Notes: generated by a model from the sequence alone, not told the origin. A stretch of 25,055 bases of DNA from an uncultured Dehalococcoidales bacterium (GCA_964540185.1 CAZILT010000068.1:1-25055); one strand, 5' to 3'. Shown: positions 1,574 through 21,850, numbered from the stretch's first letter. Made by a program: numbers and translations.

Positions 1574-1603
1574 TTGAAAACCCCTTGGGTAGTGGGGTAT
1601 AAT
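1574..1603 (+). promoter_or_regulatory. Probable sigma70 promoter of the CoA-ligase/lyase operon
   Basis: TTGAAA (1574-1579), 18-nt spacer, TATAAT (1598-1603). Strong SD AAGGAGGT precedes ATG 1715. Confidence 0.55.
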
Positions 1604-1714
1604 TGAATGAGTATGAGGGGAACTTCTGGGGGCATTGAGGAAGATACGGGATCATATTAATTAAAAGCACTACGCAGAAGAAGGGGGAGTGTATTAAGTT
1701 TAAAGGAGGTGTAA

Positions 1715-2962
1715 ATGGCTAGGTTATTCGAATACCAAGGGAAGGAGTTTCTCAAGGATGCTGGGATTGCGATTCCAACAGGGGGAGTTGCCTCTACCGC
1801 GAAAGAAGCATCTGAAGTTGCCGCCAGAATAGGGAAACCAGTGGCGGTAAAGGCGCAAGTTTGGGTTGGAGGTCGGGGAAAAGCCGGTGGGGTAAAACTT
1901 GCTGATACACCGGAAGAGGCCGAGAAGGCAGCTAAGGCTATTTTAGGAATGGAAATAAAGGGGTTCCCTGTCCGAAAGGTGCTGGTAGAAGAGAAATTGG
2001 ATATCGGGAAGGAATATTATGTGGGTATAATTCCTGACGGTTCGTGGGAGAGCAGATGTCCAGTACTTATGTTCAGCACCGAAGGGGGGATGGAGATAGA
2101 GGCAGTTCCTGAGGATAAAATTTTCCGAGCAAAGGTTGATTACCTTGAAGGGTTCCCCTTCTATGATGCTTTGGATATGGCTAGCAGTGCAGGTATTCCG
2201 AACGAGTTGCTTAAGGAAATGGCAGGAGTGATTTCTAAGCTGGTGGCAGTCTTTAAGAAGCGTGACTGCAATATATTGGAGATCAACCCTTTAGTAGTAA
2301 CTAAAGAGGGTCAGGTGATTGCAGGAGACTGTCGTATGAGTATTGACGATAGCTCGAGCTTCCGCCACCCCGAGATGGGGATCACTATCCCTAGAGAGTT
2401 TCCCTGGGAACCAACTGATTTTGACCTAGTTGGTTGGGGAATTGAAGAAACTGACCTTCGTGGCTCAGGCTTTGTTATGAAGATGACACTGGATGAAACA
2501 AGTCCCGGATTTATTGGCTTCCACGCCATTGGTGGCGGAGCAGCTATGATAGGGATGGACGCACTCAGCAGAGTGGGTCTCAAACCGGCAAATTTTGCTG
2601 ATACAAGTGGCAATCCAGTGGGTTCCAAAATTTACCGAGTGGCCAAAGTAGTTCTAGCCCAGCCCAACATTGAAGGTTACCTGCTGGCTGGCTTTCTAAT
2701 TGCTAATCAGGAACAGTGGCATCACGCTCATGCCATAGTCAAGGCTTTAAGAGAAGAACTTCCTAAAAGGCCAGGGTTTCCTTGTGTCCTTCTTTTGGCC
2801 GGGAATAAAGAGGAGGAGTCTTTACAGATACTGAAGGAGGGTCTGAAAGGTCTGCCTGGGCGTATCGAAATTTACGGGAGCGAGCGTGTAGAGGATAGTG
2901 ACTTCATTGGAAAGAGGATGGTGGCGTTAGTAGAAGAATATCGTAAGGAAAAAGGAAGATAA
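1715..2962 (+). CDS. ADP-forming acyl-CoA synthetase beta-like subunit (ATP-grasp; SucC/citryl-CoA synthetase/ACL superfamily), substrate unknown
   Basis: ATP-grasp N-terminus LFEYQGK...KAQV..GGRGKAGGVK, EINPL, GDCRM. C-terminal domain has GGGAAM, ANFADTSGNP and GFLIANQEQW instead of SucC GAGLAM, FLDVGGG and NIFGGIVRCD. Confidence 0.85.
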   Translation: MARLFEYQGKEFLKDAGIAIPTGGVASTAKEASEVAARIGKPVAVKAQVWVGGRGKAGGVKLADTPEEAEKAAKAILGMEIKGFPVRKVLVEEKLDIGKEYYVGIIPDGSWESRCPVLMFSTEGGMEIEAVPEDKIFRAKVDYLEGFPFYDALDMASSAGIPNELLKEMAGVISKLVAVFKKRDCNILEINPLVVTKEGQVIAGDCRMSIDDSSSFRHPEMGITIPREFPWEPTDFDLVGWGIEETDLRGSGFVMKMTLDETSPGFIGFHAIGGGAAMIGMDALSRVGLKPANFADTSGNPVGSKIYRVAKVVLAQPNIEGYLLAGFLIANQEQWHHAHAIVKALREELPKRPGFPCVLLLAGNKEEESLQILKEGLKGLPGRIEIYGSERVEDSDFIGKRMVALVEEYRKEKGR

Positions 2963-2978
2963 GGGAGGGTCTATTTCC

Positions 2979-3266
2979 ATGGAATTTGAAGAAAGAACCA
3001 TTAAAGTAATCATTGATACAACTAAGTGCCCTGATTGTGTAAGCAAAGCTTGTGTAGAGGCCTGTAAGCTTTACAGCCGAGGAATTTTGCGATTAAGCGA
3101 TGGGAAGCCCTCTGTGAGTCATCTTAGCCCTGAAGAGGTGAAGCGGAAGGGCACGGAATGCCTGGCGTGTGAGTATGCATGCTGGCAACGTGGCAATAAT
3201 GCCATCCGTATCGAGATTCCTATTAAGGGCCTCGGTGATTATCTGAGGAAACGCAATCTTAAATAG
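2979..3266 (+). CDS. Ferredoxin-like Fe-S protein (7 Cys)
   Basis: C17xxC20xxxxC25xxxC29 and C61xxC64xxxC68 in 95 aa. Has its own SD (GGGAGG) and sits between the beta and alpha genes. Confidence 0.8.
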   Translation: MEFEERTIKVIIDTTKCPDCVSKACVEACKLYSRGILRLSDGKPSVSHLSPEEVKRKGTECLACEYACWQRGNNAIRIEIPIKGLGDYLRKRNLK

Positions 3267-3275
3267 GGGGTAAAA

Positions 3276-4172
3276 ATGTCGATTCTTATTAATGAAAATA
3301 CCACGGTAATTGTCCAAGGGATAACTGGCCGGGAAGGTTCTCTCCGATCTAAGTATATGAAAGATTACGGCACCAGGGTGCTAGCAGGCACCTCTCCCGG
3401 CAGAGGTGGGGAGGAGGTGGCTGGGATTCCTGTCTATAATACTGTTAAGGAAGCAGTGAAGGCCCAAGGTCAGATAGATATGAGTGTCACCTTTATTCCA
3501 GGCCCGGGATTGAAGATGGCGGCACGGGAGGCCATTGATGGTGGCATCAAAATTATTGTCTGTCCAGTAGAGAGGGTGCCCCTTCATGATATCATGGAGA
3601 TGGTGGCACTAGCCAAGAAGGCAGGAGTTATGATAGTCGGGCCAGGGTCCATTGGTGTTATAAGCCCGGGGAAGGCTGTTGCTGGATGGTTGGGGGGGAA
3701 TATAGAGTGGGCGACTAAGCTATTTCATCCTGGTCCAATTGGAGTTTTATCTCGGAGCGGTGGTGAGTCTGGGACAGTACCCTGGGTTCTCAAGCAGGGT
3801 GGGATTGGTGTAAGCACAGCTATTCATACAGGCACTGAACCAATTCTTGGAATGTCTTTTGCTGATTTTCTTCTCCAGTTTGAGAAAGATGAACAGACTC
3901 TGGCTGTAGCTGCTTTTGGTGAGATTGGTGGCAGTCAGGAGGAAGAGGCCGCTGAGCTTATCAGGGCTGGTAGAGTTACCAAGCCTTTCGTCATCTACAT
4001 TGCTGGCGCAGCAGCTCCTGAAGGACAGCGCTTTTCTCATGCATCTGCCATAGTAGAACGAGGGCGTGGGACGGTGGAAGGCAAGGTAAAGACTCTTCGT
4101 GAATCCGGGGCTTACCCGGTGGAAACACCTAAAGAAATCGTCCCAACGCTTAAAAGGGTGTTAAAATTATAA
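3276..4172 (+). CDS. ADP-forming acyl-CoA synthetase alpha-like subunit (SucD-like, CoA-binding)
   Basis: VIVQGITGREG CoA-binding Rossmann motif, GPGSIG, SRSGG, IGGSQEE, and phospho-His motif RFSHASAI (SucD: MGHAGAI). Confidence 0.88.
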   Translation: MSILINENTTVIVQGITGREGSLRSKYMKDYGTRVLAGTSPGRGGEEVAGIPVYNTVKEAVKAQGQIDMSVTFIPGPGLKMAAREAIDGGIKIIVCPVERVPLHDIMEMVALAKKAGVMIVGPGSIGVISPGKAVAGWLGGNIEWATKLFHPGPIGVLSRSGGESGTVPWVLKQGGIGVSTAIHTGTEPILGMSFADFLLQFEKDEQTLAVAAFGEIGGSQEEEAAELIRAGRVTKPFVIYIAGAAAPEGQRFSHASAIVERGRGTVEGKVKTLRESGAYPVETPKEIVPTLKRVLKL

Positions 4173-4258
4173 TATAGGAGGTGTGTTGATATGTAGTGTG
4201 GCGATATGTTGAGGTTTTTCCGGGGTAGTCAAAATTTAAATTCATAGGAGGTAAGGAT

Positions 4259-5155
4259 ATGCCAGTACTGCGTTCAGTGTTTTATGTTCCAGGAAATAAG
4301 GAGGAACTAATTGCCAAGATTCCAAGGATACCGGCGGATGTTATTACGCTGGATATCGAGGATTCTGTGCCCCCGGCAGAGAAGCAAAAGGCACGAGAAT
4401 TGAGTCATAAGAATCTCAAATTTGCAGCATCATCGGGAGCAGATGTTTATTGTCGTGTCAACAACTGGGAAACGGGTATGACCAATGCTGATTGTGAAGC
4501 TATAGTTGATAAGGGACTTGCGGCTGTCTGCCTGGCTAAGTGTGGTGGGGCCGATGATGTAAAGCGCCTGGCCTGGAAACTAGAAGAAATGGAACAGAGG
4601 AAGGGGTTAGAGGTAGGGAGCGTAAAAATTCAGCTATTGATTGAAACCGCTAAGGGCATGATGAATGTTTACGCGGCTGCTACTGCAAGTCCGAGGGTCA
4701 ATTCACTGATTTTTGGAGCAGTGGACTACACCACAGATATGAGAGTTACACTGACTCAGCCGATCGGTGAGGAACAAAAGTGGGCCAGGGCACGCATGGC
4801 CTGTGCCGCTAGAGCTGCCGGCATTATAGCCATCGACTGCCCCTACGTAGCTTTCAAGGATACTGAAGGTTTTGAGAAGGATACACTCTACGGGCGGCAG
4901 TTAGGCTTCGAAGGAAGGATGCTGATTCATCCCAGCCAGATTGAGCCTTCTCATAGAATCTACTCCCCCGCACCTGAGAGGGTAGAGTGGGCTAGAGAGG
5001 TTGTCAAGGTGTTTGAGGAGGAGGGAATTGCCAAGGGGTCGGCAGCAGTGTCATACAAAGGCAAGATGGTGGATACTCCTGTTTATATCGGAGCCAAGAA
5101 GATTCTTGATGCCCAGACGGAGATCGAAGCCAGGGAGAGAAAAAGAGCAGGGTAG
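4259..5155 (+). CDS. CitE/HpcH-HpaI family acyl-CoA lyase (citryl/malyl/citramalyl-CoA lyase type)
   Basis: RSVFYVPGN, LDIEDSV, RVN, LIETAKG, FGAVDY, LIHPSQI, GKMVD motifs. SD AGGAGGT. Confidence 0.9.
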   Translation: MPVLRSVFYVPGNKEELIAKIPRIPADVITLDIEDSVPPAEKQKARELSHKNLKFAASSGADVYCRVNNWETGMTNADCEAIVDKGLAAVCLAKCGGADDVKRLAWKLEEMEQRKGLEVGSVKIQLLIETAKGMMNVYAAATASPRVNSLIFGAVDYTTDMRVTLTQPIGEEQKWARARMACAARAAGIIAIDCPYVAFKDTEGFEKDTLYGRQLGFEGRMLIHPSQIEPSHRIYSPAPERVEWAREVVKVFEEEGIAKGSAAVSYKGKMVDTPVYIGAKKILDAQTEIEARERKRAG

Positions 5156-5230
5156 TAGTGCAGTGCTAAAACAGCTGTGTCTGAAATAGTGCCCCAGTTG
5201 GCAAGCGAATTTGAAAAGGAGGTAATCAAT

Positions 5231-6616
5231 ATGGGTGTAATAACTGCAGCTAAATTACAGGATGTTGTTGGTAAGGATTGGGTGGTAACAGCAGCAGAAC
5301 AAATGATGGACTATATGCAGGATGCAGTGATGGGAGCTGTAATCCCTAAGCCTGCCAAAAACATCATCGTGGCAAAACCAGCTAATGCACAAGAGATATC
5401 AGAGATATTGAAGCTGGCAAATAAGAAGAAATTCCCCGTCATCGTCAGAGGTGGAGGAAGTGGAATGGCTGGTGGTGCTGTACCAAATATAGACTGTGTG
5501 CTTCTCTCACTAGAAAGAATGAACAAGATTGTAGAGATAAGCAAAGAGGATTTAATGATCACCGTTGAAGCAGGCAAGCCTTACGGGGAGATGTGCGAAG
5601 CTGTAGAAGCTGAGGGTATGTTCTTCGCCCCCAGGCCAGGGGATTTGGGTGCTCATTGTGGTGGCATAGTAGCAACCAATGCCGGTGGGTCAAGAGCAGT
5701 GAAGTATGGTGTCACAAGGGCTTTCCTGAAAGGCATGGAGGTTGTGACCCCCGCTGGCGAAATATTGCATCTCGGTGGAAAGCTACTTAAGTATTCTATG
5801 GGTCTTGATTTAGCACATTTGTTTGTGGGCAGCAAAGGAACTTTGGGTGTAATAACTCAGGTTACCTTCAGGCTGGCGGTCAAGGCACCCTTTAGTGCCC
5901 TTCTGCTGGCATCATACGATGATCGTCTTGAATGTATGAAAGTTGCTCCACACGTAACTGCAGCAATGATAATTCCTCTGGCCGGGGAGTACATCGATCA
6001 CGACTTGGCCGTCGATACTGCCAAGTACCTGGGCCTTGAGTGGCCTGCCAAGAAAGGGAAGGCTCACATATTTTTTGTCAGCGAAGGACCAAATGAGGAT
6101 GTAGTATACGCTGAGCTCGAGAAAATATCTGGGATATGTGAGGAGCATGGAGCCATCGATATACTGATGGCGGAGAGAAAAGAAGAGCAGAACGCCGTTT
6201 TATCGTCGAGGGGTGAGACAGGCTCAATGCAGAAGGCGGCCGGTAATATAGGGGACTTCATGGATGTAGCTGTGCCTCCGTCTCGTGTGGCAGACCTCTT
6301 TGCGGGAATACTAGATCTCGAGAAGAAATACAACACCTGGATACCCACCTGTGGACATGCAAGCGATGGTAATTTACATCCTACGCCGCTGAAGGAACTT
6401 GCAGATAGAGGCGTGCTTGAGGATTGTAAGACTGACATGTACAAGAAAGTTATCGAGTTAGGCGGGGTTTTAACTGGCGAACACGGCATAGGGACAATCA
6501 GGCTTCACAATACTCCTTTATGGCCTGAGCCCCAAGTGTGGGAATATATGAGAAAGGTCAAAAAGGCATTTGACCCGAACAATATATTAAATCCGCAGCG
6601 TGAGATTCCGGACTAA
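5231..6616 (+). CDS. FAD-linked 2-hydroxyacid oxidoreductase, GlcD/LctD/D-lactate dehydrogenase family
   Basis: RGGGSGMAGG, GGIVATNAGG..AVKYG, GSKGTLGVIT, GHASDGNLHP, GEHGIG, FDPNNILNP. Start reassigned from 5177 to ATG 5231, behind SD AAGGAGGT. Confidence 0.9.
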   Translation: MGVITAAKLQDVVGKDWVVTAAEQMMDYMQDAVMGAVIPKPAKNIIVAKPANAQEISEILKLANKKKFPVIVRGGGSGMAGGAVPNIDCVLLSLERMNKIVEISKEDLMITVEAGKPYGEMCEAVEAEGMFFAPRPGDLGAHCGGIVATNAGGSRAVKYGVTRAFLKGMEVVTPAGEILHLGGKLLKYSMGLDLAHLFVGSKGTLGVITQVTFRLAVKAPFSALLLASYDDRLECMKVAPHVTAAMIIPLAGEYIDHDLAVDTAKYLGLEWPAKKGKAHIFFVSEGPNEDVVYAELEKISGICEEHGAIDILMAERKEEQNAVLSSRGETGSMQKAAGNIGDFMDVAVPPSRVADLFAGILDLEKKYNTWIPTCGHASDGNLHPTPLKELADRGVLEDCKTDMYKKVIELGGVLTGEHGIGTIRLHNTPLWPEPQVWEYMRKVKKAFDPNNILNPQREIPD

Positions 6617-6644
6617 CCCTTTTCACTTCTTCATCTGTATTGGA

Positions 6645-6688
6645 CAGGGGTTGTTCAGCTAGCAAAACGATTACCTGAACAACCCCTG
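6645..6688. terminator. Perfect 14-bp inverted repeat between convergent operons; probable bidirectional terminator or repeat element
   Basis: CAGGGGTTGTTCAG (6645-6658) / CTGAACAACCCCTG (6675-6688), 16-nt loop, no clear U-tract. Confidence 0.5.
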
Positions 6689-6810
6689 AGATTTACCAAG
6701 AATGGCAAAAGACTAGAGCGTCAGTCTCTCTGTAGAGGCAACAGGTGGTATGTGCTGAATTGAGAACCTCCAAGCAATCCTAGGGCAGGTCGAGATACCT
6801 CACCTGGATA

Positions 6811-15013: not shown

Positions 15014-16393
15014 ATGGCACAAGAAAAATTACCCCCCCACGATATTGAGGCGGAGGAGGCTGTAATTGGCTCCTTGCTTATTGATCCTGATGCTATTTTG
15101 AAAGTTGCTATCTTTCTTAAGCCTGAGGACTTTTTTGAGGAGGCTAATCAGCTTATTTACCGAGCTTGTTTCTCCCTTTATCAGCGCAATGAAGCCATAA
15201 ATCAAATCACCGTAGCTCATGAATTGATGCGCCAGAATAAGCTGGAGCAAATTGGCGGTGCTGCCTATTTAAGCCATCTGATATCTATTGTGCCCACGTC
15301 TCTTCATGTTGAACATTATGCGCAGATAGTGTCTAACATGGCAGTAATGCGGCGGTTAATCGCTGCTGCGGGACAGATTGCTGCTATTGGCTATGATGCT
15401 GGACCAGATGTCGAGGCTAGCCTCAATAAAGCTGAAGAGCTCCTTTTCCAATTACGCATGAAGCAGGGAGCCAGGGATTTTGTTCTAGTTCGTGATGTTC
15501 TAGGCCAATACTTTGAAGAGGCTGGACAGCCTGCTGTGCCTCTGGAAGGGAAGATGCCTCACACTCTAACTGGTTTTCCTGGGCTGGATGCCCTCCTGGG
15601 TGGCTTACAGAAATCAGACTTGATTGTTTTAGCTGCCAGGCCTAGCATGGGTAAAACCAGCTTGGCTCTAAATATTGCCAGAAACGCTGCTGTCAACCAA
15701 GGAGCTTGTGTTGCTATATTCAGTTTGGAGATGTCCCGGGAATCAGTAGTTCAGCGTCTTCTGTCTAGCGAGGCAGAGGTAGATTCTAAGCATGTTCGTT
15801 TTGGACATTTTGAAGGAAACGATGAGGTGAGGGTCATGGAGGCCAGTGGAATCTTATCTGAAACGCCAATCTACATCGATGATTCACCTCAGATTCGAGC
15901 TATAGATATAAGAAGCAAAGCGCGGCGCCTTCACTTTGAGCACAATATTGACTTAATAATCGTTGATTACATACAGCTAATAGAGGGTGATGGTAGGAAT
16001 GAAAATCGGGTTCAGGAGCTCAGTAAAATAACTCGTTCATTAAAAATGCTGGCTAGAGAGTTGGATGTACCAGTGCTGGCCGTATCTCAACTTAGCCGGG
16101 CTGTGGAATGGCGAGCCTCCCATATGCCTCAGCTTGCTGACTTGCGCGAAAGCGGCACCATCGAACAGGATGCTGATATTGTTGTTTTTATCTACCGAGA
16201 TGACATGTATTATAAGGAGGAAGACTGGTATAAACTGCATGATATGGAGAAGGAGCCTTATCCGCGTGGCATCGCTGATATTATCGTATCTAAGCACCGT
16301 AACGGCCCTTTAGGGCAAGTTAAGTTGCGTTTCTTGAATAGAGTGGTTAAATTTGATAGCTTGGAGGGGGCCGAGTCAATTTCAGCTATTTGA
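15014..16393 (+). CDS. dnaB: Replicative DNA helicase DnaB
   Basis: PPHDIEAEEAVIG, AARPSMGKT Walker A, FSLEM, DYIQL, SQLSR, LRESGTIEQDAD, KHRNGP. Confidence 0.97.
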   Translation: MAQEKLPPHDIEAEEAVIGSLLIDPDAILKVAIFLKPEDFFEEANQLIYRACFSLYQRNEAINQITVAHELMRQNKLEQIGGAAYLSHLISIVPTSLHVEHYAQIVSNMAVMRRLIAAAGQIAAIGYDAGPDVEASLNKAEELLFQLRMKQGARDFVLVRDVLGQYFEEAGQPAVPLEGKMPHTLTGFPGLDALLGGLQKSDLIVLAARPSMGKTSLALNIARNAAVNQGACVAIFSLEMSRESVVQRLLSSEAEVDSKHVRFGHFEGNDEVRVMEASGILSETPIYIDDSPQIRAIDIRSKARRLHFEHNIDLIIVDYIQLIEGDGRNENRVQELSKITRSLKMLARELDVPVLAVSQLSRAVEWRASHMPQLADLRESGTIEQDADIVVFIYRDDMYYKEEDWYKLHDMEKEPYPRGIADIIVSKHRNGPLGQVKLRFLNRVVKFDSLEGAESISAI

Positions 16394-17106
16394 AAAACGG
16401 AAAGATGTTAAATAAAAAATTTACTGGTTTCCCAGCAGGAGTAACATTTATCTCCTTGCCTGACCTCTTCCTTACTCAGGTGATGCCTCAGATTCAAGAT
16501 GTGGCTGAGCTTAAAGTAACAATTTATATCTTTTATTTGCTCCATCGTAAGCGAGGGTATCCCTGTTTTGTTACATATAGGGAGTTACTGTCTGATAGGG
16601 TATTGATGGCTGGGGTGGGAGAGGGAGCACTTCGTCTTGCTTTAAGCTCAGCGGTAAACCGCGGCACTATTTTACATCTAAACTTAAATATAGATGGTAA
16701 CTGGGAGGATGTTTACTTTGCCAATATGGAAAGTGATAGGAAGGCTATTGATAACATCAAGCGTGGGAAGCTTCCTATTGATGAAATGAAACCCGGCGAG
16801 GAAAGGATACGACGTCCAGTACAATTACCTAACATTTTCGCCCTCTATGAGCAAAATATAGGGATAATAACGCCAATGATTGCTGAAGAGCTTAAAGAGG
16901 CGGAAAGATTATATCCCCCACAGTGGATTGATGAGGCTTTTGAGGAAGCAGTCCTGATGAATAAACGCAGTTGGAGATATATTGCTCGTATTCTTGAACG
17001 CTGGGCTAGCGAAGGTAAGGATAGTGGAAAGCATAGACAAGGTATTAAAAAGAATGACCCCGACAAATACATCAGGGGCAAGTACGGACATCTGGTCAAA
17101 AGATAA
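16390..17106 (+). CDS. DnaD domain protein
   Basis: C-terminal NIFALYEQNIG.ITPMIAEEL...WIDEAFEEAV..NKRSWRYIARILERW DnaD domain. TTGA overlap with the dnaB stop; alternative ATG at 16405. Confidence 0.85.
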   Translation: MKNGKMLNKKFTGFPAGVTFISLPDLFLTQVMPQIQDVAELKVTIYIFYLLHRKRGYPCFVTYRELLSDRVLMAGVGEGALRLALSSAVNRGTILHLNLNIDGNWEDVYFANMESDRKAIDNIKRGKLPIDEMKPGEERIRRPVQLPNIFALYEQNIGIITPMIAEELKEAERLYPPQWIDEAFEEAVLMNKRSWRYIARILERWASEGKDSGKHRQGIKKNDPDKYIRGKYGHLVKR

Positions 17107-18448
17107 ACCTGCTGGCCGTTCTGAGCGTAGCGAAGAATCTCATGGTGCCGAGAGCAAGTCCTACGCTGGGGAAGGAACCTGTCCTATATGTAAAGGAGCT
17201 GGCTTTGTGCATCCGCTACTGGCTTCAGGACAGCCTGATTTTAGTCGGGTGGTGCCTTGCCAGTGTGAAAGAGAAAAACGACAGGGGAGAAAGTTACAAT
17301 ACCTTAAGAAATACAGCAATCTTGGTTCCCTGTCACGGCTTACATTTGGCAATTTATCGCCGAAGGGAAACAGAGACGACGCTGTTTCACAGGAGCGCTT
17401 TAGTTGTGCTTACCAGGTGGCCAAAACCTTTGCGGATAATCCCCAAGGGTGGCTTGTCCTTTCCGGTCCTAGCGGCTGTGGCAAAACTCACTTAGCTTGT
17501 GCTATTGCTAATCACTGTTTAAGTGCGGGACAGCCGGCCTTTTATATCGGAGTTGCCGATCTTCTAGATCACCTCCGTTCTGCTTTTAGCCCCACAAGTA
17601 ATATAACCTACGATGAGTTATTTGAGCATGTAAAGAATACGCCCCTACTGGTGCTTGATGACCTAACTATGGAAGGTGCTACATCCTGGGCAAGGGAAAA
17701 ATTGGAGCAACTTCTCAATCATCGTTTCAATGCTAGGTTAGCCACTGTGGTTACCACAGATGTGCCATTGGAAAAGTTTGGTGAGCGTTTGCACGGGCAT
17801 TTCAGAAATGATGAATTTTGCCAGGTATGTGCAGTGGGGCAAAAGTCGTCCTTAGAACGATTGGGCACATTGCCGCCGGGACTATTGCGGAATATGACCT
17901 TTGATAAGTTTGACTATAAGCGATTGAACCTATCTTTGGAGCAGCGTCAAAATCTACAACAAGCTTTTCATCTAGCAGCGGATTTTGCTCATAATCCGGA
18001 AGGTTGGCTAATATTTAGCGGTGTTAACGGTTGTGGCAAAACCCATCTAGCAGCAGCTATTACTAATTATCGGTTAGCACAGGGCAAGCCGACTTTCTTT
18101 GTTGTTGTTCCTGAATTGCTTGACCATTTACGCTCTACCTTCAGCCCGGAGAGTAGGGTGCCATATGATGAATTTTTTGAGGAGATTAAACAAAGCCCGC
18201 TGCTGATACTCGATGATTTTGGTGAACAATCAGCTACCTCATGGGCTCAAGAGAAGCTATATCAATTGATTAACCATCGCTATAATACTACATTACCGAT
18301 GGTAGTTACCACATGCCTTTCGCTGGATGAGATTGAAACCCGAATCAGTTCACGAATGGTAGATCCGAGCCTAAGCCTGGTTTTTAATATCATCGCTCCT
18401 GATTATCGTGGTGATGTAAAGACTAGTCGGCGGGCTAAGCGCTACTGA
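17024..18448 (+). CDS. DnaC/DnaI/IstB-family helicase-loader-like ATPase with two tandem AAA+ domains
   Basis: N-terminal CPICKG...PCQC; two Walker A (GPSGCGKTHLA, GVNGCGKTHLA); two Walker B (LLVLDDL, LLILDDF). Start tentatively GTG 17024 after GAAGGTAAGG; the exact start is uncertain. Confidence 0.85.
   Translation: MESIDKVLKRMTPTNTSGASTDIWSKDKPAGRSERSEESHGAESKSYAGEGTCPICKGAGFVHPLLASGQPDFSRVVPCQCEREKRQGRKLQYLKKYSNLGSLSRLTFGNLSPKGNRDDAVSQERFSCAYQVAKTFADNPQGWLVLSGPSGCGKTHLACAIANHCLSAGQPAFYIGVADLLDHLRSAFSPTSNITYDELFEHVKNTPLLVLDDLTMEGATSWAREKLEQLLNHRFNARLATVVTTDVPLEKFGERLHGHFRNDEFCQVCAVGQKSSLERLGTLPPGLLRNMTFDKFDYKRLNLSLEQRQNLQQAFHLAADFAHNPEGWLIFSGVNGCGKTHLAAAITNYRLAQGKPTFFVVVPELLDHLRSTFSPESRVPYDEFFEEIKQSPLLILDDFGEQSATSWAQEKLYQLINHRYNTTLPMVVTTCLSLDEIETRISSRMVDPSLSLVFNIIAPDYRGDVKTSRRAKRY
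17118..17141 (+). repeat. Half-copy of a GTCATT(C/G)...AGCGAAG(C)AATCTC-type palindromic repeat inside the loader gene
   Basis: GTTCTGAGCGTAGCGAAGAATCTC, read in frame as RSERSEES. Shares AGCG-N-AGCGAAG-(C)-AATCTC with 19636-19609. Confidence 0.6.
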
Positions 18449-18699
18449 TTGACCTTCGCTGGGGGGCCGCTGTAGGCCTGGGCTATGTGGACCAGGCCAC
18501 TACTTACTTGATGGAACAATTGTGCACCAATAGACTGACCGTACAAGAGGCGGTAAAGAACACCATGGCTACCATGGGCCCGGATCCGCAATATGGCGCC
18601 AGGTTGAAGTATCTCCCATCCCAGAGCAGCAGTAAAACACTGGATGAGCTGCTTGCTTCTCAGGGGATTCAGCTTCCTGAGCGCATTTCATTATTGTAG
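18439..18699 (+). pseudogene. Probable C-terminal fragment of a lost gene (alternatively a 70-aa hypothetical from GTG 18487)
   Basis: The frame is open from 18439 (ALLIDLRWGAAVGLGYVDQATTYLMEQLC...GPDPQYGARLKYLP) with protein-like composition, but there is no SD before GTG 18487. Confidence 0.4.
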
Positions 18700-18729
18700 T
18701 GCGACCCTGATGAAGGATGTTCACCCTTC

Positions 18730-18760
18730 ACCTCACCTTATCTGTCGAGGGACGTGAGGG
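18730..18760 (-). repeat. Copy 2 of the dispersed palindromic repeat, just downstream of panC
   Basis: CCCTCACGTCCCTCGACAGATAAGGTGAGGT matches the trxB copy at 26/31 nt. Lies between convergent genes. Confidence 0.6.
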
Positions 18761-18773
18761 TATCAGGAGTATC

Positions 18774-19607
18774 CTATGCCAGCAGGACATTATCTATCAG
18801 CCTCGTTCTACCTATCCTGACTGCCAGCAAGGCCAGGGCTGGTCGGTCAATTACCTCCAGTTCCTCCAGGGTATCGGCATCAGCAATGCTGACATAATCA
18901 ATTCTGGCCAGAGGCTTCTTGCGTATAACTGATTTCATTTCGCGCCGAAGCTTATCGCCGTTTTTTTCACCATCCTGCCATAATTGCCTGGCTAAGAAGA
19001 GAGCCCTGAACAGAACGGTCGCTGCCTGGCGTTCCTCAGAATTGAGGTAACCATTGCGGCTGCTCATAGCCAGGCCATCGCCTTCCCTCACCGTGGGCAC
19101 AACCATAATCTCCATGTTCATATTAAGGTCAGCCACCATCCTCTTGATGACCACCACCTGCTGGGCATCCTTCTGTCCGAAGTAAGCCCGGGTGGGCTGG
19201 ACGATGTTTAATAGTTTGGCTACCACTGTAGCCACTCCTCGGAAATGTCCCGGACGAGATGCTCCCTCAAGACGCTCCGTTAATTTCTTCACATCCACCC
19301 AGGTGCTGAACTCCTGGGGATACATCTCTGCGTCAGAAGGCACAAAAGCAATGTCCGTTCCCTCCTGCTCCAGTAGCCTCAGGTCGCGGTCAATGTCCCG
19401 TGGGTAGGTGGCCAGATCCTCATTAGGACTAAACTGGGTGGGATTAACAAAAATGCTAACCACAACGGTGTCATTTCCCACCCTAGCTTGCTTCATCAGA
19501 GCTAGATGACCTTCATGAAGATAGCCCATAGTGGGCACAAAGCCGCCCGAGCCGCTGAGCTTTTGTCTCAATTCCCTTATCTCGGCGATTGTTTTTATTA
19601 CTTGCAT
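18774..19607 (-). CDS. panC: Pantoate--beta-alanine ligase
   Basis: FVPTMGYLHEGH, SIFVNPTQF, RPGHFRGV, YFGQKDAQQ, GLAMSSRN, RLIDN. Confidence 0.97.
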   Translation of the reverse strand: MQVIKTIAEIRELRQKLSGSGGFVPTMGYLHEGHLALMKQARVGNDTVVVSIFVNPTQFSPNEDLATYPRDIDRDLRLLEQEGTDIAFVPSDAEMYPQEFSTWVDVKKLTERLEGASRPGHFRGVATVVAKLLNIVQPTRAYFGQKDAQQVVVIKRMVADLNMNMEIMVVPTVREGDGLAMSSRNGYLNSEERQAATVLFRALFLARQLWQDGEKNGDKLRREMKSVIRKKPLARIDYVSIADADTLEELEVIDRPALALLAVRIGRTRLIDNVLLA

Positions 19608-20455
19608 TGAGATTGCTTCGCTCCGCTTGCAGTAACATCGCTGAGGAGGCTTTCATCCATAGTATAGCTCTGCTTTGCGGTAGGGAAACTAGCAGATTTA
19701 ACTTCAGTTACATAATCAGAGACAGCGGCCTCTATTTCTTCAGCCAACTTAGCATATTGCTTGGCATGCTTGGGCACAAAAGTGGAGTAAAGGCCCAGAA
19801 TATCGCTGATCACCTGAACCTGACCATCACAATCAGGTCCAGCTCCAATGCCAATCGTGGGGATATTCGCCTTCTGTGTAATCAGCTTAGCAAGAGGCGA
19901 TGGAACACACTCCAGAACAACGGCAAATGCGCCCGCTTCCTCCAAGATACAAGCATCTTTAAGCAGCCTTTCAGCTACCTCTAGCGTTTTCCCCTGCACC
20001 TTAAAGCCGCCCAACTGATGGATGGATTGCGGAGTAAGCCCGATATGCCCCATAACCGGGATGCCACAATCAACAATACGCTTTACCACTTCAGACACAG
20101 CTTCACCCCCCTCCAGTTTGACTGCCTGCGCCCCACCTTCCTGGATGAAACGCCCCACATTATGCAAAGCCTCAGGTAGGCTGACATGGTAGGTCATGAA
20201 AGGCATATCGCCTATTATCAAGGCCTTCTTAGCCCCCCTGACCACAGCCTTTGTGTGGTGCAGCATCTCCTCCATAGTCACAGGAATGGTGGAGTCATAA
20301 CCCAACATCACCATCCCCAGACTATCCCCAACCAATATCAAGGGCACACCAGCTTCATCAACCATCTTAGCAGTTATATAATCATAAGCGGTAAGCATAG
20401 GTATCTTCTCCCGCTTACGCTTCATCTCCTGTATTTCAGTAATAGTAACTCGCAT
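19598..20455 (-). CDS. panB: 3-methyl-2-oxobutanoate hydroxymethyltransferase
   Basis: MLTAYD, LVGDSLGM, DMPF, VKLEGG, GHIGLTPQ, IGIGAG.CDGQV. Confidence 0.97.
   Translation of the reverse strand: MRVTITEIQEMKRKREKIPMLTAYDYITAKMVDEAGVPLILVGDSLGMVMLGYDSTIPVTMEEMLHHTKAVVRGAKKALIIGDMPFMTYHVSLPEALHNVGRFIQEGGAQAVKLEGGEAVSEVVKRIVDCGIPVMGHIGLTPQSIHQLGGFKVQGKTLEVAERLLKDACILEEAGAFAVVLECVPSPLAKLITQKANIPTIGIGAGPDCDGQVQVISDILGLYSTFVPKHAKQYAKLAEEIEAAVSDYVTEVKSASFPTAKQSYTMDESLLSDVTASGAKQSQCK
19609..19636 (-). repeat. Half-copy of the AGCGAAGCAATCTC palindromic repeat forming the PanB C-terminus
   Basis: GTTACTGCAAGCGGAGCGAAGCAATCTC on the minus strand, translated as VTASGAKQS. Confidence 0.6.
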
Positions 20456-20471
20456 TTTATCTCCCCCTCCC

Positions 20472-20568
20472 TAAAAAATTAAAAGTCAAACATAAAAAAT
20501 CAAAGTGACTACTTAAAATGTAAAATTTTTTAGATTTTGCTCTGTATTTTTGCATTTTAATCTTTTAT
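20472..20568. repeat. AT-rich imperfect palindrome between panD and panB
   Basis: On the minus strand, an A-tract arm (AAAATGCAAAAAT...AAAATCTAAAA) is followed by a T-tract arm (TTTTACATTTT...ATTTTTTATGTTTGACTTTT). Far more AT-rich than the rest of the window. Confidence 0.4.
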
Positions 20569-20952
20569 TTACATTTCTCGTCTAGGAAGAGCGACTGTAG
20601 GTGAGGGCTCGATAATTCTATTTTTATCATCCACATAAACCACAGCCGGCTCCATAGCTATAGCCTCATCATCGGCAACCTGGTAGTAGGAGAGAATGAT
20701 AACTATATCCCCTTTAGCCACTAGCCTGGCAGCAGCACCGTTAAGCCCGATTATCCCTGAATTTGCCCCGCCTTCAATAACATAAGTGCTGAACCGGGCT
20801 CCGTTATTGATATTAAGCACCTCTACCCGCTCAAACGGCAGAAGGTCGCTGGCCTCCATAAGCACTCTGTCAATGGTAATGCTGCCCTCATAATCTAAAT
20901 TGACCTCTGTGGCCCGAGCTCGGTGGATTTTACTTTTCAGCATAGTCCTCAT
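20569..20952 (-). CDS. panD: Aspartate 1-decarboxylase proenzyme
   Basis: [17 protein letters not shown] self-cleavage site, [18 protein letters not shown] 20952 follows SD AAAGGAGG. Confidence 0.97.
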
Positions 20953-21850
20953 TTCTTGCCTCCTTTGTATACTGTCTCGCCTCAAGATGGCAATGACTAT
21001 TTAAAATAGCTCCCAATTCCATGGCCCTACCTTCATCAATCCCGCCCCTGGCTAAAGCAATGGGAATGGTTTCAAATCCTAAGTCTTTGTAGATAGTTAG
21101 CAATGAGGAATTCCAAGCTTCAAGAGCATTTACATGCTTGCTTATGGTGCTTAAGTCACCACGGGCAATGGGGCCGGTGAGGCAGTGGGGCAAGCCAACA
21201 TTATCAATATTATTCACCGTTCCCTTGAGCAAAGGAAGCAAGGATTCTGTTGCCTCCTTCGGTGACACGCCAAAGCTGCGCCATAAATCCAGGGCTAACT
21301 TAATCAGGGTTACTACATAATTAGAGACAAAGACAGCCGCTATATGATATAGCACTTTGTCTCCCGGCTTAAGCTCCACCCAATTGCCATACAAACTGGA
21401 ACACAGTTCCTTCAGCCTTGATAGCAGAGGTTCTTCGGCTTCTAGGGCAAACGTGGAACCGGGTAGGTTATGGATTGCTTCATCAATGCTGGCAAAAGTT
21501 TGCAGCGGGTGGAAGGAAGCTACATTGGCGCCAAGTCGTTCAGCCGACTCCAGAATATCAACGGAATGAGCTCCGCTGCAATGTATGACATTCTGCCCTT
21601 TATGCCATTTAACCTCACTCGCTACATGAGAAATAAAATCATCAGGGGTGGTGATAAACACTAGTTCAGCGACATCAGCTACTTCCTGGGCTGTTTGGCA
21701 AGGGCGACAATTAGCCACCAACCCTGCCAGCTTCCGTGCCGAGGTCAGACTTCGACTGGATACAGCCACTACTGGACTCCCCCGCTGAGAAAGGCTTACT
21801 GCCAAGGCTGTGCCCACCGTTCCAGCACCGACAAAGCCAACTGTTAACAT
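20930..21850 (-). CDS. panG: Rossmann-like + DUF2520 oxidoreductase; probable PanG-type ketopantoate reductase
   Basis: [41 protein letters not shown]. First gene of the pan operon, which lacks panE. Confidence 0.8.

Follow-up and report, generated by a model that had tools for sequence, protein, structure and literature searches.

The malyl-CoA pathway has been described enzymatically in Syntrophobotulus glycolicus (Friedrich and Schink) and in Moorella (Moorella sp. HUC22-1, Sakai et al. 2008), both cited in PMC8092247 and PMC6313629. Enzyme assays have supported the pathway since as early as the 1990s; these two articles assign no genes to it, and fermenters of glycolate and glyoxylate gain ATP at the malyl-CoA thiokinase step. 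The operon analyzed here, taken together with malic enzyme and pyruvate synthase, can account for this set of reactions, and orthologous beta-ferredoxin-alpha-lyase clusters with 60-66% identity occur in S. glycolicus and M. thermoacetica. The window, the whole stretch of 25,055 nt that was analyzed, belongs to a 1-Mb Dehalococcoidia genome and, in contrast to those two bacteria, the malic enzyme gene (C152:23-1258) is not linked to the operon. MtkAB and Mcl of the serine cycle belong to the same superfamilies as the window ligase and lyase, with the same proposed chemistry and a shared catalytic His in alpha. However, no ferredoxin-like gene separates the neighboring MtkA and MtkB genes in the alphaproteobacterial loci L094-L097, whereas the window ligase has one, and the physiological direction of MtkAB and Mcl is opposite to that proposed here. 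Succinyl-CoA synthetase (SucCD) has the two-subunit ATP-grasp and CoA-binding plan and the phosphohistidine mechanism in common with the window ligase, but the window family is distinguished by its ANQEQWHH signature, by an insert of 6 residues in alpha and by an additional, conserved 7-Cys subunit. In our assessment the operon is probably the core of an anaerobic malyl-CoA pathway that would yield ATP from glycolate or glyoxylate.

A preliminary description of the locus had listed five co-oriented genes, each with a Shine-Dalgarno site, behind one promoter and ending at a 14-bp inverted repeat. An ORF check of the window found the five ORFs at the coordinates given then, all on the + strand: the beta subunit of an acid-CoA ligase of the SucCD superfamily (1715..2962, 415 aa, ATP-grasp_2), a 7-Cys ferredoxin-like protein (2979..3266, 95 aa), the alpha subunit (3276..4172, 298 aa, CoA_binding and Ligase_CoA), a CitE/HpcH-family lyase (4259..5155, 298 aa, HpcH_HpaI) and a FAD-linked 2-hydroxyacid dehydrogenase of the LctD/GlcD type (5177..6616 as first given, FAD_binding_4 and FAD-oxidase_C). 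These domains bear out the general logic put forward at that time, in which an ADP-forming CoA ligase acts with a lyase of the CitE family and with a flavoenzyme for 2-hydroxyacids. The single upstream promoter has a counterpart in a promoter-like site, TTGAAA-18 nt-TATAAT, with 11 of 12 matches (1574..1603, + strand). Inspection of the start signals showed Shine-Dalgarno sites before the beta, ferredoxin-like, alpha and lyase genes, which are separated by 16, 9 and 86 nt, respectively. The start of the fifth gene had to be moved: ATG 5231 is preceded by the Shine-Dalgarno sequence AAAGGAGGT, whereas GTG 5177 has none. Translation from ATG 5231 (5231..6616) gives 461 aa, and the homologues are all 456-461 aa long. 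In a relative with 94-95% identity, metatranscriptome contigs show insertions of 2 nt within 5224-5230. ATG 5231 is most likely the start codon, and GTG 5177 probably is not. The inverted repeat 3′ of the fifth gene (6645..6688, + strand) is longer than described, with 17-nt arms (6645-6661 and 6672-6688) that contain one mismatch (94% complementary) and flank a 10-nt loop, and it did not pass a terminator scan because a clear T-run is absent after the repeat. Metatranscriptome contigs of the close relative, from three soil runs, span approximately 1656-6597 and cross all four gene junctions. They start at about 1656-1693, past the promoter-like site, and their depth is zero or near zero in the flanking bins, including the last bin (6546-6700). 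These contigs are consistent with a single transcript for the five genes in the close relative, although they are not proof of it.

Judged by gene order, by the clade of its beta subunit and by the seven cysteines, the window operon belongs to a conserved beta-ferredoxin-alpha-lyase module. This order, with or without the lyase, is kept in at least 80 loci or genomes of at least five phyla, the taxa being Chloroflexota, Bacillota, Desulfobacterota, Actinomycetota, Bilophila and Thiobacillaceae. The ferredoxin-like gene separates beta from alpha at each of 78 loci; alpha is retained at each of 77, and the lyase at 63 of 69. Comparison of the loci indicates that the conserved unit consists of the first four genes only. 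Synteny elsewhere, which the preliminary description had called for, was found for these four, but among the loci compared a GlcD-like gene follows the lyase only in the window and in one close relative. In the 49 loci with wide flanks, the neighbors include malic enzyme (29), GlcD-like (27), GlcF-like (25) and PFOR (7) genes, and malic enzyme or GlcD is near the module in 42. The layout is module-malic enzyme-GlcD-GlcF in Bilophila, module followed by malic enzyme in S. glycolicus DSM 8271 and M. thermoacetica, and GlcF/GlcD, TRAP transporter, module, GlcDE fusion, GlcF and PFOR in a Desulfofustis MAG. The beta gene of the module is the sole SucC-type gene of S. glycolicus. Within Dehalococcoidia the module is rare (4 of 301 genomes sampled). 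The host genome has two POR-type (POR_N) enzymes and an EtfBA-LctD set, and a search of it found no SucC/SucCD-type genes other than the operon pair.

In the malyl-CoA pathway that we propose, the LctD-type enzyme would most likely oxidize glycolate to glyoxylate and pass the electrons to EtfAB encoded on another contig, and the lyase would join glyoxylate and acetyl-CoA to form (S)-malyl-CoA. A three-subunit thiokinase (beta, the 7-Cys Fe-S-type protein and alpha) would then convert malyl-CoA, ADP and Pi to L-malate, CoA and ATP, turning over via a phosphohistidine on alpha. Acetyl-CoA would be regenerated by malic enzyme and pyruvate:ferredoxin oxidoreductase, the genes of which are elsewhere in the genome. 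We infer that the flux runs from glyoxylate to malate. This corresponds to what had been offered before as the reverse operation of the operon, in which glycolate is oxidized, glyoxylate and acetyl-CoA are condensed and ATP is gained by substrate-level phosphorylation; the forward operation, in which ATP would drive the cleavage of a 3-hydroxy acid, and the ATP-citrate lyase or citrate flavor given to the ligase now appear less likely. The claim of a new pathway fails because S. glycolicus and Moorella, for which the malyl-CoA pathway is described enzymatically (cited in PMC8092247 and PMC6313629), have the same module. The pathway is not new, and the uncharacterized part is the ligase family with its Fe-S subunit. 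Some features speak against our reading. They are the preference of the lyase for the citE model together with its scores below all curated cut-offs, the slight likeness of beta to ATP-citrate lyase and citryl-CoA synthetase, a malic enzyme gene that is not adjacent, the rarity of the module in the class, an Fe-S-type protein in a reaction without need of electrons, and a fifth gene that follows the module in the window and one close relative only, is nearest to a lactate dehydrogenase and has no adjacent GlcF.

The same enzymes could operate in the other direction, with an ATP-driven conversion of L-malate to malyl-CoA and then to acetyl-CoA and glyoxylate, as in the serine cycle. The reactions of MtkAB and of Mcl are both reversible. 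Such a route would be a source of acetyl-CoA or of glyoxylate, the latter for instance for glycine, and the substrate of the flavoenzyme would be glyoxylate/glycolate or else an unrelated 2-hydroxy acid. The 1-Mb genome with no other SucCD-type enzyme and with malic enzyme outside the operon fits this direction, as does one Chloroflexota relative in which the module adjoins acyl-CoA dehydrogenase genes instead of glycolate genes. We nevertheless consider it rather unlikely because genes for glycolate dehydrogenase, malic enzyme and PFOR recur beside the module and because the module is present in glycolate and glyoxylate fermenters, for which this step yields ATP.

The two enzymes downstream of the ligase bear on the identity of the thioester. 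The lyase scored 137 bits with HpcH_HpaI, above the gathering score of 25, and was below all curated cut-offs, with citE as the best model (201.8 against 443.4 bits), followed by RipC/Ccl (145 against 375) and Mcl (80.8 against 500). It is 33% identical to the serine-cycle Mcl and 66% identical to the lyase of the Moorella cluster, and we propose that it is an (S)-malyl-CoA lyase. Among solved structures, the product of the fifth gene is best matched by LctD (7qh2_C, 260.7 bits) from LctBCD, the electron-confurcating lactate dehydrogenase of Acetobacterium woodii. Relatives with 62-63% identity are located directly behind EtfB-EtfA. In contrast, the fifth gene of the operon has no etf neighbors and is joined to the malyl-CoA module instead, and the EtfBA-LctD set of the same genome is on contig C81, its LctD being 49% identical to the window copy. 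A role as the glycolate oxidase subunit of GlcDEF was rejected, as the score with the GlcD equivalog TIGR00387 was below the cut-off (301.8 against 567.9) and no GlcE or GlcF partner is adjacent at the locus. The S. glycolicus dehydrogenase is described as membrane-bound, whereas that of the window is a soluble LctD-type enzyme with no adjacent GlcF. We propose that the fifth gene may encode an Etf-coupled glycolate (or D-lactate) dehydrogenase. The lyase and ligase could instead act on another 3-hydroxy-dicarboxylate thioester, such as citramalyl-CoA (from pyruvate and acetyl-CoA) or beta-methylmalyl-CoA, and the LctD-like enzyme would then make pyruvate from D-lactate. Consistent with this are the score of the lyase with the RipC/Ccl citramalyl-CoA lyase model, human CLYBL as its second-best solved match, the closeness of the fifth gene to LctD and, in a close relative, a lactate operon (Etf-LctD-LarA) that precedes the module by 5 kb. 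Malic enzyme adjacent in 29 of 49 loci and the proximity of GlcD/GlcF point to malate and glyoxylate, however, and no citramalate-consuming genes were seen near the module, which makes another thioester improbable.

The preference of the lyase for citE also raises a two-step cleavage or synthesis of citrate by a citryl-CoA synthetase and a CitE-type citryl-CoA lyase. The beta subunit passes the Citrate_bind cut-off marginally (29 against 26.8 bits), is below that of Citrate_synth_N (51.2 against 83), and has Hydrogenobacter CcsA (6hxq_B) as its second-best solved match. These are weak signals of a likeness to CcsAB/AclAB. Ccl is citrate-synthase-like, whereas the partner lyase in the window is of the CitE type. 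The scores counted in favor of citrate fall well short of the equivalog cut-offs. In the tree, where AclB alone represented this group, AclB (25% identical to beta) forms a distant branch. The context of modules of this type is glycolate and malate rather than the reverse TCA cycle, with malic enzyme and glycolate dehydrogenase as neighbors and no TCA-cycle genes. We therefore regard a citrate pathway as very improbable.

Returning to the proposed malyl-CoA thiokinase, beta scored 193.6 bits with ATP-grasp_2 and was below the equivalog cut-offs of both SucC (NF001913, 265.9 against 370) and MtkA (NF010647, 187.5 against 604), and alpha was below that of SucD (NF004230, 273 against 336 bits). 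The best solved match of beta is the SucCD of Thermus aquaticus (3ufx_B). Beta is 60-66% identical to the S. glycolicus and Moorella betas and about 33% identical to MtkA. In the trees these betas do not group inside bona fide SucC, a grouping that by the preliminary description would have refuted its reading, and form their own clade (support 100/100) on a long stem (0.93-0.94), separate from SucC plus MtkA (99-100/99). The MtkA clade (100/100) leaves out the window beta and nests within SucC. Several genomes have both a beta of this clade and a bona fide SucC. In SucD and MtkB, the residue aligned with His255 of alpha is the catalytic phosphohistidine of the GHAGA loop. We propose that beta and alpha are subunits of a malate thiokinase (malyl-CoA synthetase); gene context and the physiology described for S. 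glycolicus and Moorella make malate/malyl-CoA the probable substrate. Public sources label the relatives of this ligase as "succinyl-CoA synthetase".

The small protein encoded between beta and alpha had been described as an embedded ferredoxin. Its seven cysteines (C17, C20, C25, C29, C61, C64 and C68, in the motifs Cx2Cx4Cx3C and Gx2Cx2Cx3C) are invariant in 45 orthologues, but domain searches gave no family match at E ≤ 0.01, and the matches at E ≤ 1 were to Fer4 only, all below the gathering scores. A standard bacterial 2x[4Fe-4S] ferredoxin was rejected, as the two CxxCxxCxxxC(P) motifs are absent and Fer4 is below threshold. The predicted model has a ferredoxin-like fold (pLDDT 86.8). 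A structure search with it returned no hits at E ≤ 0.001, and its resemblance in fold to small ferredoxins is weak (1siz_A, TM 0.66 normalized to the target). Natural fusions of beta with this protein occur in some genomes. The predicted beta/alpha/ferredoxin-like complex reached an ipSAE of 0.86 compared with 0.00 for the best control; among 80 solved complexes 58 attained this ipSAE mark, as did 2 of 110 mismatched pairs. From the cysteines, the fusions and the predicted complex, we propose that this protein is a third subunit of the ligase, of a putative Fe-S type. An ordinary SucCD interrupted by a chance small ORF, for which the public names and the status of the pair as the only SucCD-like one in the host genome could be cited, is contradicted by tree and synteny and is the least probable reading, given the missed SucC and SucD cut-offs, the separate clade with true SucC co-present in several genomes, and a small ORF that is conserved, invariant in its cysteines and fused to beta in places. 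The thiokinase reaction needs no electrons, yet the ligase always carries this embedded Fe-S-type protein.

All five co-oriented genes reported in the preliminary description were recovered on the forward strand, with small corrections. Comparison with Pfam and NCBIfam identified a SucC-like ATP-grasp subunit (beta, 1715-2962), a SucD-like subunit (alpha, 3276-4172), an HpcH/CitE-family lyase (4259-5155) and a GlcD-like FAD-linked oxidase (ORF 5177-6616, probable start at 5231). The second gene (2979-3266), which codes for a 95-amino acid ferredoxin-like protein with seven cysteines (Fd), had no family match at E ≤ 0.01 in either collection. A promoter-like site, TTGAAA-18-TATAAT, is located at 1574-1603, a Shine-Dalgarno site lies ahead of each gene (at ATG 5231 in the fifth), and a 17-nt inverted repeat that was not picked up by the terminator scan is found downstream at 6645-6688. 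The operon is flanked by unrelated housekeeping genes on the opposite strand (fpg, then acpP, nusB and fabD). Assembled contigs from three soil metatranscriptome runs, which represent a relative 94-95% identical to the window and not the window organism itself, covered approximately 1656-6597 and spanned all four gene junctions, while the depth in the flanking bins was zero or near zero. This coverage is compatible with a single transcript.

The preliminary description proposed a new ATP-linked pathway. The mechanism that it gave as the reverse reaction, where a 2-hydroxy acid such as glycolate is oxidized and condensed with acetyl-CoA with a gain of ATP, is the best supported; the claim of a new pathway was not upheld, since the operon, as read from its sequence, most probably encodes the known malyl-CoA pathway. 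The thiokinase/lyase clade is itself uncharacterized, as are its obligatory subunit of the Fe-S type and the recruitment of an LctD-type dehydrogenase in these bacteria. According to two papers (PMC8092247, PMC6313629), glyoxylate is metabolized via malyl-CoA in Syntrophobotulus glycolicus and fermented via malyl-CoA in Moorella sp. HUC22-1, and few anaerobic glycolate users are known, M. thermoacetica and Desulfofustis glycolicus among them. M. thermoacetica has genes for beta, a 96-amino acid protein, alpha, the lyase and malic enzyme, with products 62-66% identical to those of the window. The same five genes, i.e., the module beta-Fd-alpha-lyase plus malic enzyme, are present in S. glycolicus DSM 8271, followed by [FeFe]-hydrogenase genes. 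In the S. glycolicus genome searched, the one with a 100% identical match, the beta of the module is the sole SucC-type ATP-grasp gene, which leaves no other obvious candidate for the malyl-CoA synthetase activity that has been reported. The region directly after malic enzyme in this locus (16028-21275) encodes two [FeFe]-hydrogenase large subunits, a polyferredoxin and an NrfD-like membrane protein, a cluster that agrees with descriptions of membrane-linked hydrogen production in this syntroph.

The genome that includes the window (0.99 Mb, 90% complete) encodes malic enzyme and two POR-type oxidoreductases, so the cycle would be able to close, and no second SucC was found in it. A 909-amino acid ORF on another contig of this genome (C96:7588-9354) has weak ATP-grasp and alpha-like matches and may be an ADP-forming acetyl-CoA-synthetase-type fusion. 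Flux in the opposite direction through these same genes is less likely than the glycolate-oxidizing direction. Citramalyl-CoA or beta-methylmalyl-CoA as the substrate is also less likely than malyl-CoA. Citryl-CoA is again a less likely substrate; the lyase scored 202 against a cut-off of 443 with the citE equivalog model of NCBIfam. No assignment of genes to the anaerobic malyl-CoA pathway was found in a search of literature other than subscription journals, and an earlier one may have been published. This pathway is among the few described routes of anaerobic glycolate breakdown, and glycolate is a major algal exudate. Naming the module would make glycolate/glyoxylate fermentation recognizable in genomes and metagenomes, including those of Dehalococcoidia, Desulfobacterota and the gut bacterium Bilophila.

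A grouping of the ligase inside bona fide SucCD would, according to the preliminary description, have spoken against its proposal. A maximum-likelihood tree was built with 28 family members, eight SucC and four serine-cycle MtkA; the MtkA came from annotated loci on plasmids, in which sga, hpr, ppc and mcl are present as well. The family formed its own clade (support 100/100, stem 0.94), MtkA was nested within SucC, and several genomes encode a family member in addition to a true SucC; the ligase therefore stands apart from bona fide SucCD. When a Sulfurovum AclB (25% identical) was added, the family was still one clade, beside SucC plus MtkA, in a tree where the deep root is weakly sampled, with one ACL sequence and no CcsA. 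The NCBIfam equivalog models gave 266 against a cut-off of 370 (SucC) and 187.5 against 604 (MtkA) for beta, and 273 against 336 (SucD) for alpha. The catalytic histidine is kept in alpha, where His255 aligned with the histidine in the GHAGA loop. A plain SucCD is a less likely reading than a ligase of the malyl-CoA pathway.

With each species represented by a single genome, a scan found relatives of beta encoded in 418 genomes, and 80 loci were kept. The small Cys-rich gene was located between beta and alpha in all 78 loci that have space for it, alpha came next in 77 of 77, and the lyase was present in 63 of 69. The module was found in Dehalococcoidia and other Chloroflexota, Moorella/Neomoorella, Desulfosporosinus, Desulfitobacterium, Dehalobacter, Ca. 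Dichloromethanomonas and Gracilibacter, as well as in many Desulfobacterota (including Desulfofustis), Actinomycetota, Bilophila wadsworthia and a Thiobacillaceae MAG. Malic enzyme or GlcD was present in 42 of the 49 loci with wide flanks (malic enzyme, 29; GlcD-like, 27; GlcF-like CCG iron-sulfur gene, 25; PFOR, 7). The layout in Bilophila is beta-Fd-alpha-lyase-malic enzyme-GlcD-GlcF, and that in a Desulfofustis MAG is GlcF/GlcD, TRAP transporter, module, GlcD-GlcE fusion, GlcF and PFOR. Within the class of the window organism, the module was detected in 4 of 301 genomes sampled, and it was absent from all eight genomes sampled from the same family; this rarity indicates an accessory trait in the lineage. 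Ca. Dichloromethanomonas elyunquensis RM has beta-Fd-alpha-lyase-malic enzyme at LNDB01000006.1, 8001-12970. The paper on this strain may have missed this non-canonical module, although its proteome data favored a glyoxylate carboligase route.

The seven cysteines of the small protein were invariant among 45 orthologues, in the motifs C17-x2-C20-x4-C25-x3-C29 and G58-x2-C61-x2-C64-x3-C68; Fer4 matches were sub-threshold only. Its AlphaFold model, with a pLDDT of 86.8, is similar to small ferredoxins, for example the [3Fe-4S] ferredoxin of P. furiosus, but no hit at E ≤ 0.001 was obtained when this model was used in a fold search. Among 1.84 billion cluster representatives searched with a profile, only 145 relatives were recovered at E ≤ 0.001, which argues for a specific family rather than a generic ferredoxin. 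About 10 of these were 470-541 amino acids long, and the six that were checked were all beta-Fd fusions. The predicted beta-alpha-Fd complex had an ipSAE of 0.86 versus 0.00 for the best of three controls. Of 80 solved complexes, 58 reached this mark, as did 2 of 110 mismatched pairs; these counts hold only approximately because custom alignments were supplied. The predicted contacts would involve the C-terminal domain of beta (residues 235-376, among them the invariant ANQEQWHH stretch), the CoA-binding loop of alpha (residues 18-22), and the flank of the three-Cys motif of the small protein. These data support the small protein as a candidate third subunit of the ligase, and this subunit may carry an Fe-S cluster. 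An obligatory subunit of this type is unexpected, in that a CoA ligase moves no electrons and the superfamily is well studied, and it is directly testable.

The start of the fifth gene is probably ATG 5231, and the annotated GTG 5177 is probably wrong, since AAAGGAGGT precedes the former as a strong Shine-Dalgarno site and none is found at the latter, all homologues are 456-461 amino acids long, and the transcriptome contigs of the close relative have 2-nt insertions at 5224-5230. Its product scored 302 against a cut-off of 568 with the GlcD equivalog model (NCBIfam). Among solved structures the best match, at 260.7 bits, was 7qh2_C, the LctD subunit of the Etf-dependent lactate dehydrogenase, with a glycolate oxidase ranking below it; EtfB-EtfA genes are found directly upstream of relatives 62-63% identical, and the window's genome has an EtfB-EtfA-LctD operon (C81:1857-4932) with an LctD 49% identical to the fifth product. 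On these grounds the enzyme is read as a putative Etf-coupled 2-hydroxyacid dehydrogenase. Glycolate would be the substrate that suits the operon, and D-lactate is also possible. The EtfAB encoded at C81:1857-4932 is likely the electron-acceptor system for both LctD-type enzymes. The same gene is found 3′ of the lyase in only one close relative (87% identical), where the module is closely preceded by an Etf-LctD-LarA-TRAP cluster; in other close relatives malic enzyme is directly upstream instead.

We tentatively propose, as a possibility that we consider rather improbable as a whole, that the seven-cysteine protein is an Fe-S subunit seated on the C-terminal domain of beta by the CoA site of alpha, and that the LctD-type enzyme and EtfAB make up a soluble, possibly electron-confurcating, glycolate dehydrogenase. 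If so, the succinyl-CoA-synthetase superfamily would gain in this ligase its first member that depends on an Fe-S cluster. The subunit could be a redox or oxygen switch over the ATP-yielding step or, alternatively, its cluster could be completed by an invariant His of beta. A Dehalococcoidia bacterium with a 1-Mb genome would then be able to oxidize glycolate and dispense with the membrane-bound reversed electron transport that has been described in S. glycolicus.

Additional ligase copies were observed. One, on the minus strand of locus L106 (in the same genome as locus L004), is diverged (beta 52% and alpha 62% identical to those of the window) and falls within the family clade; its beta and alpha are about 430 nt apart, space enough for a small gene. 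Another is part of a second lyase-beta-alpha cluster in Neomoorella carbonis (G003:C1:1085000-1090000), where alpha immediately adjoins beta and a ferredoxin-like gene is lacking, and the beta, 36% identical, forms a long branch that lies near the base of the tree and is not part of the family clade.
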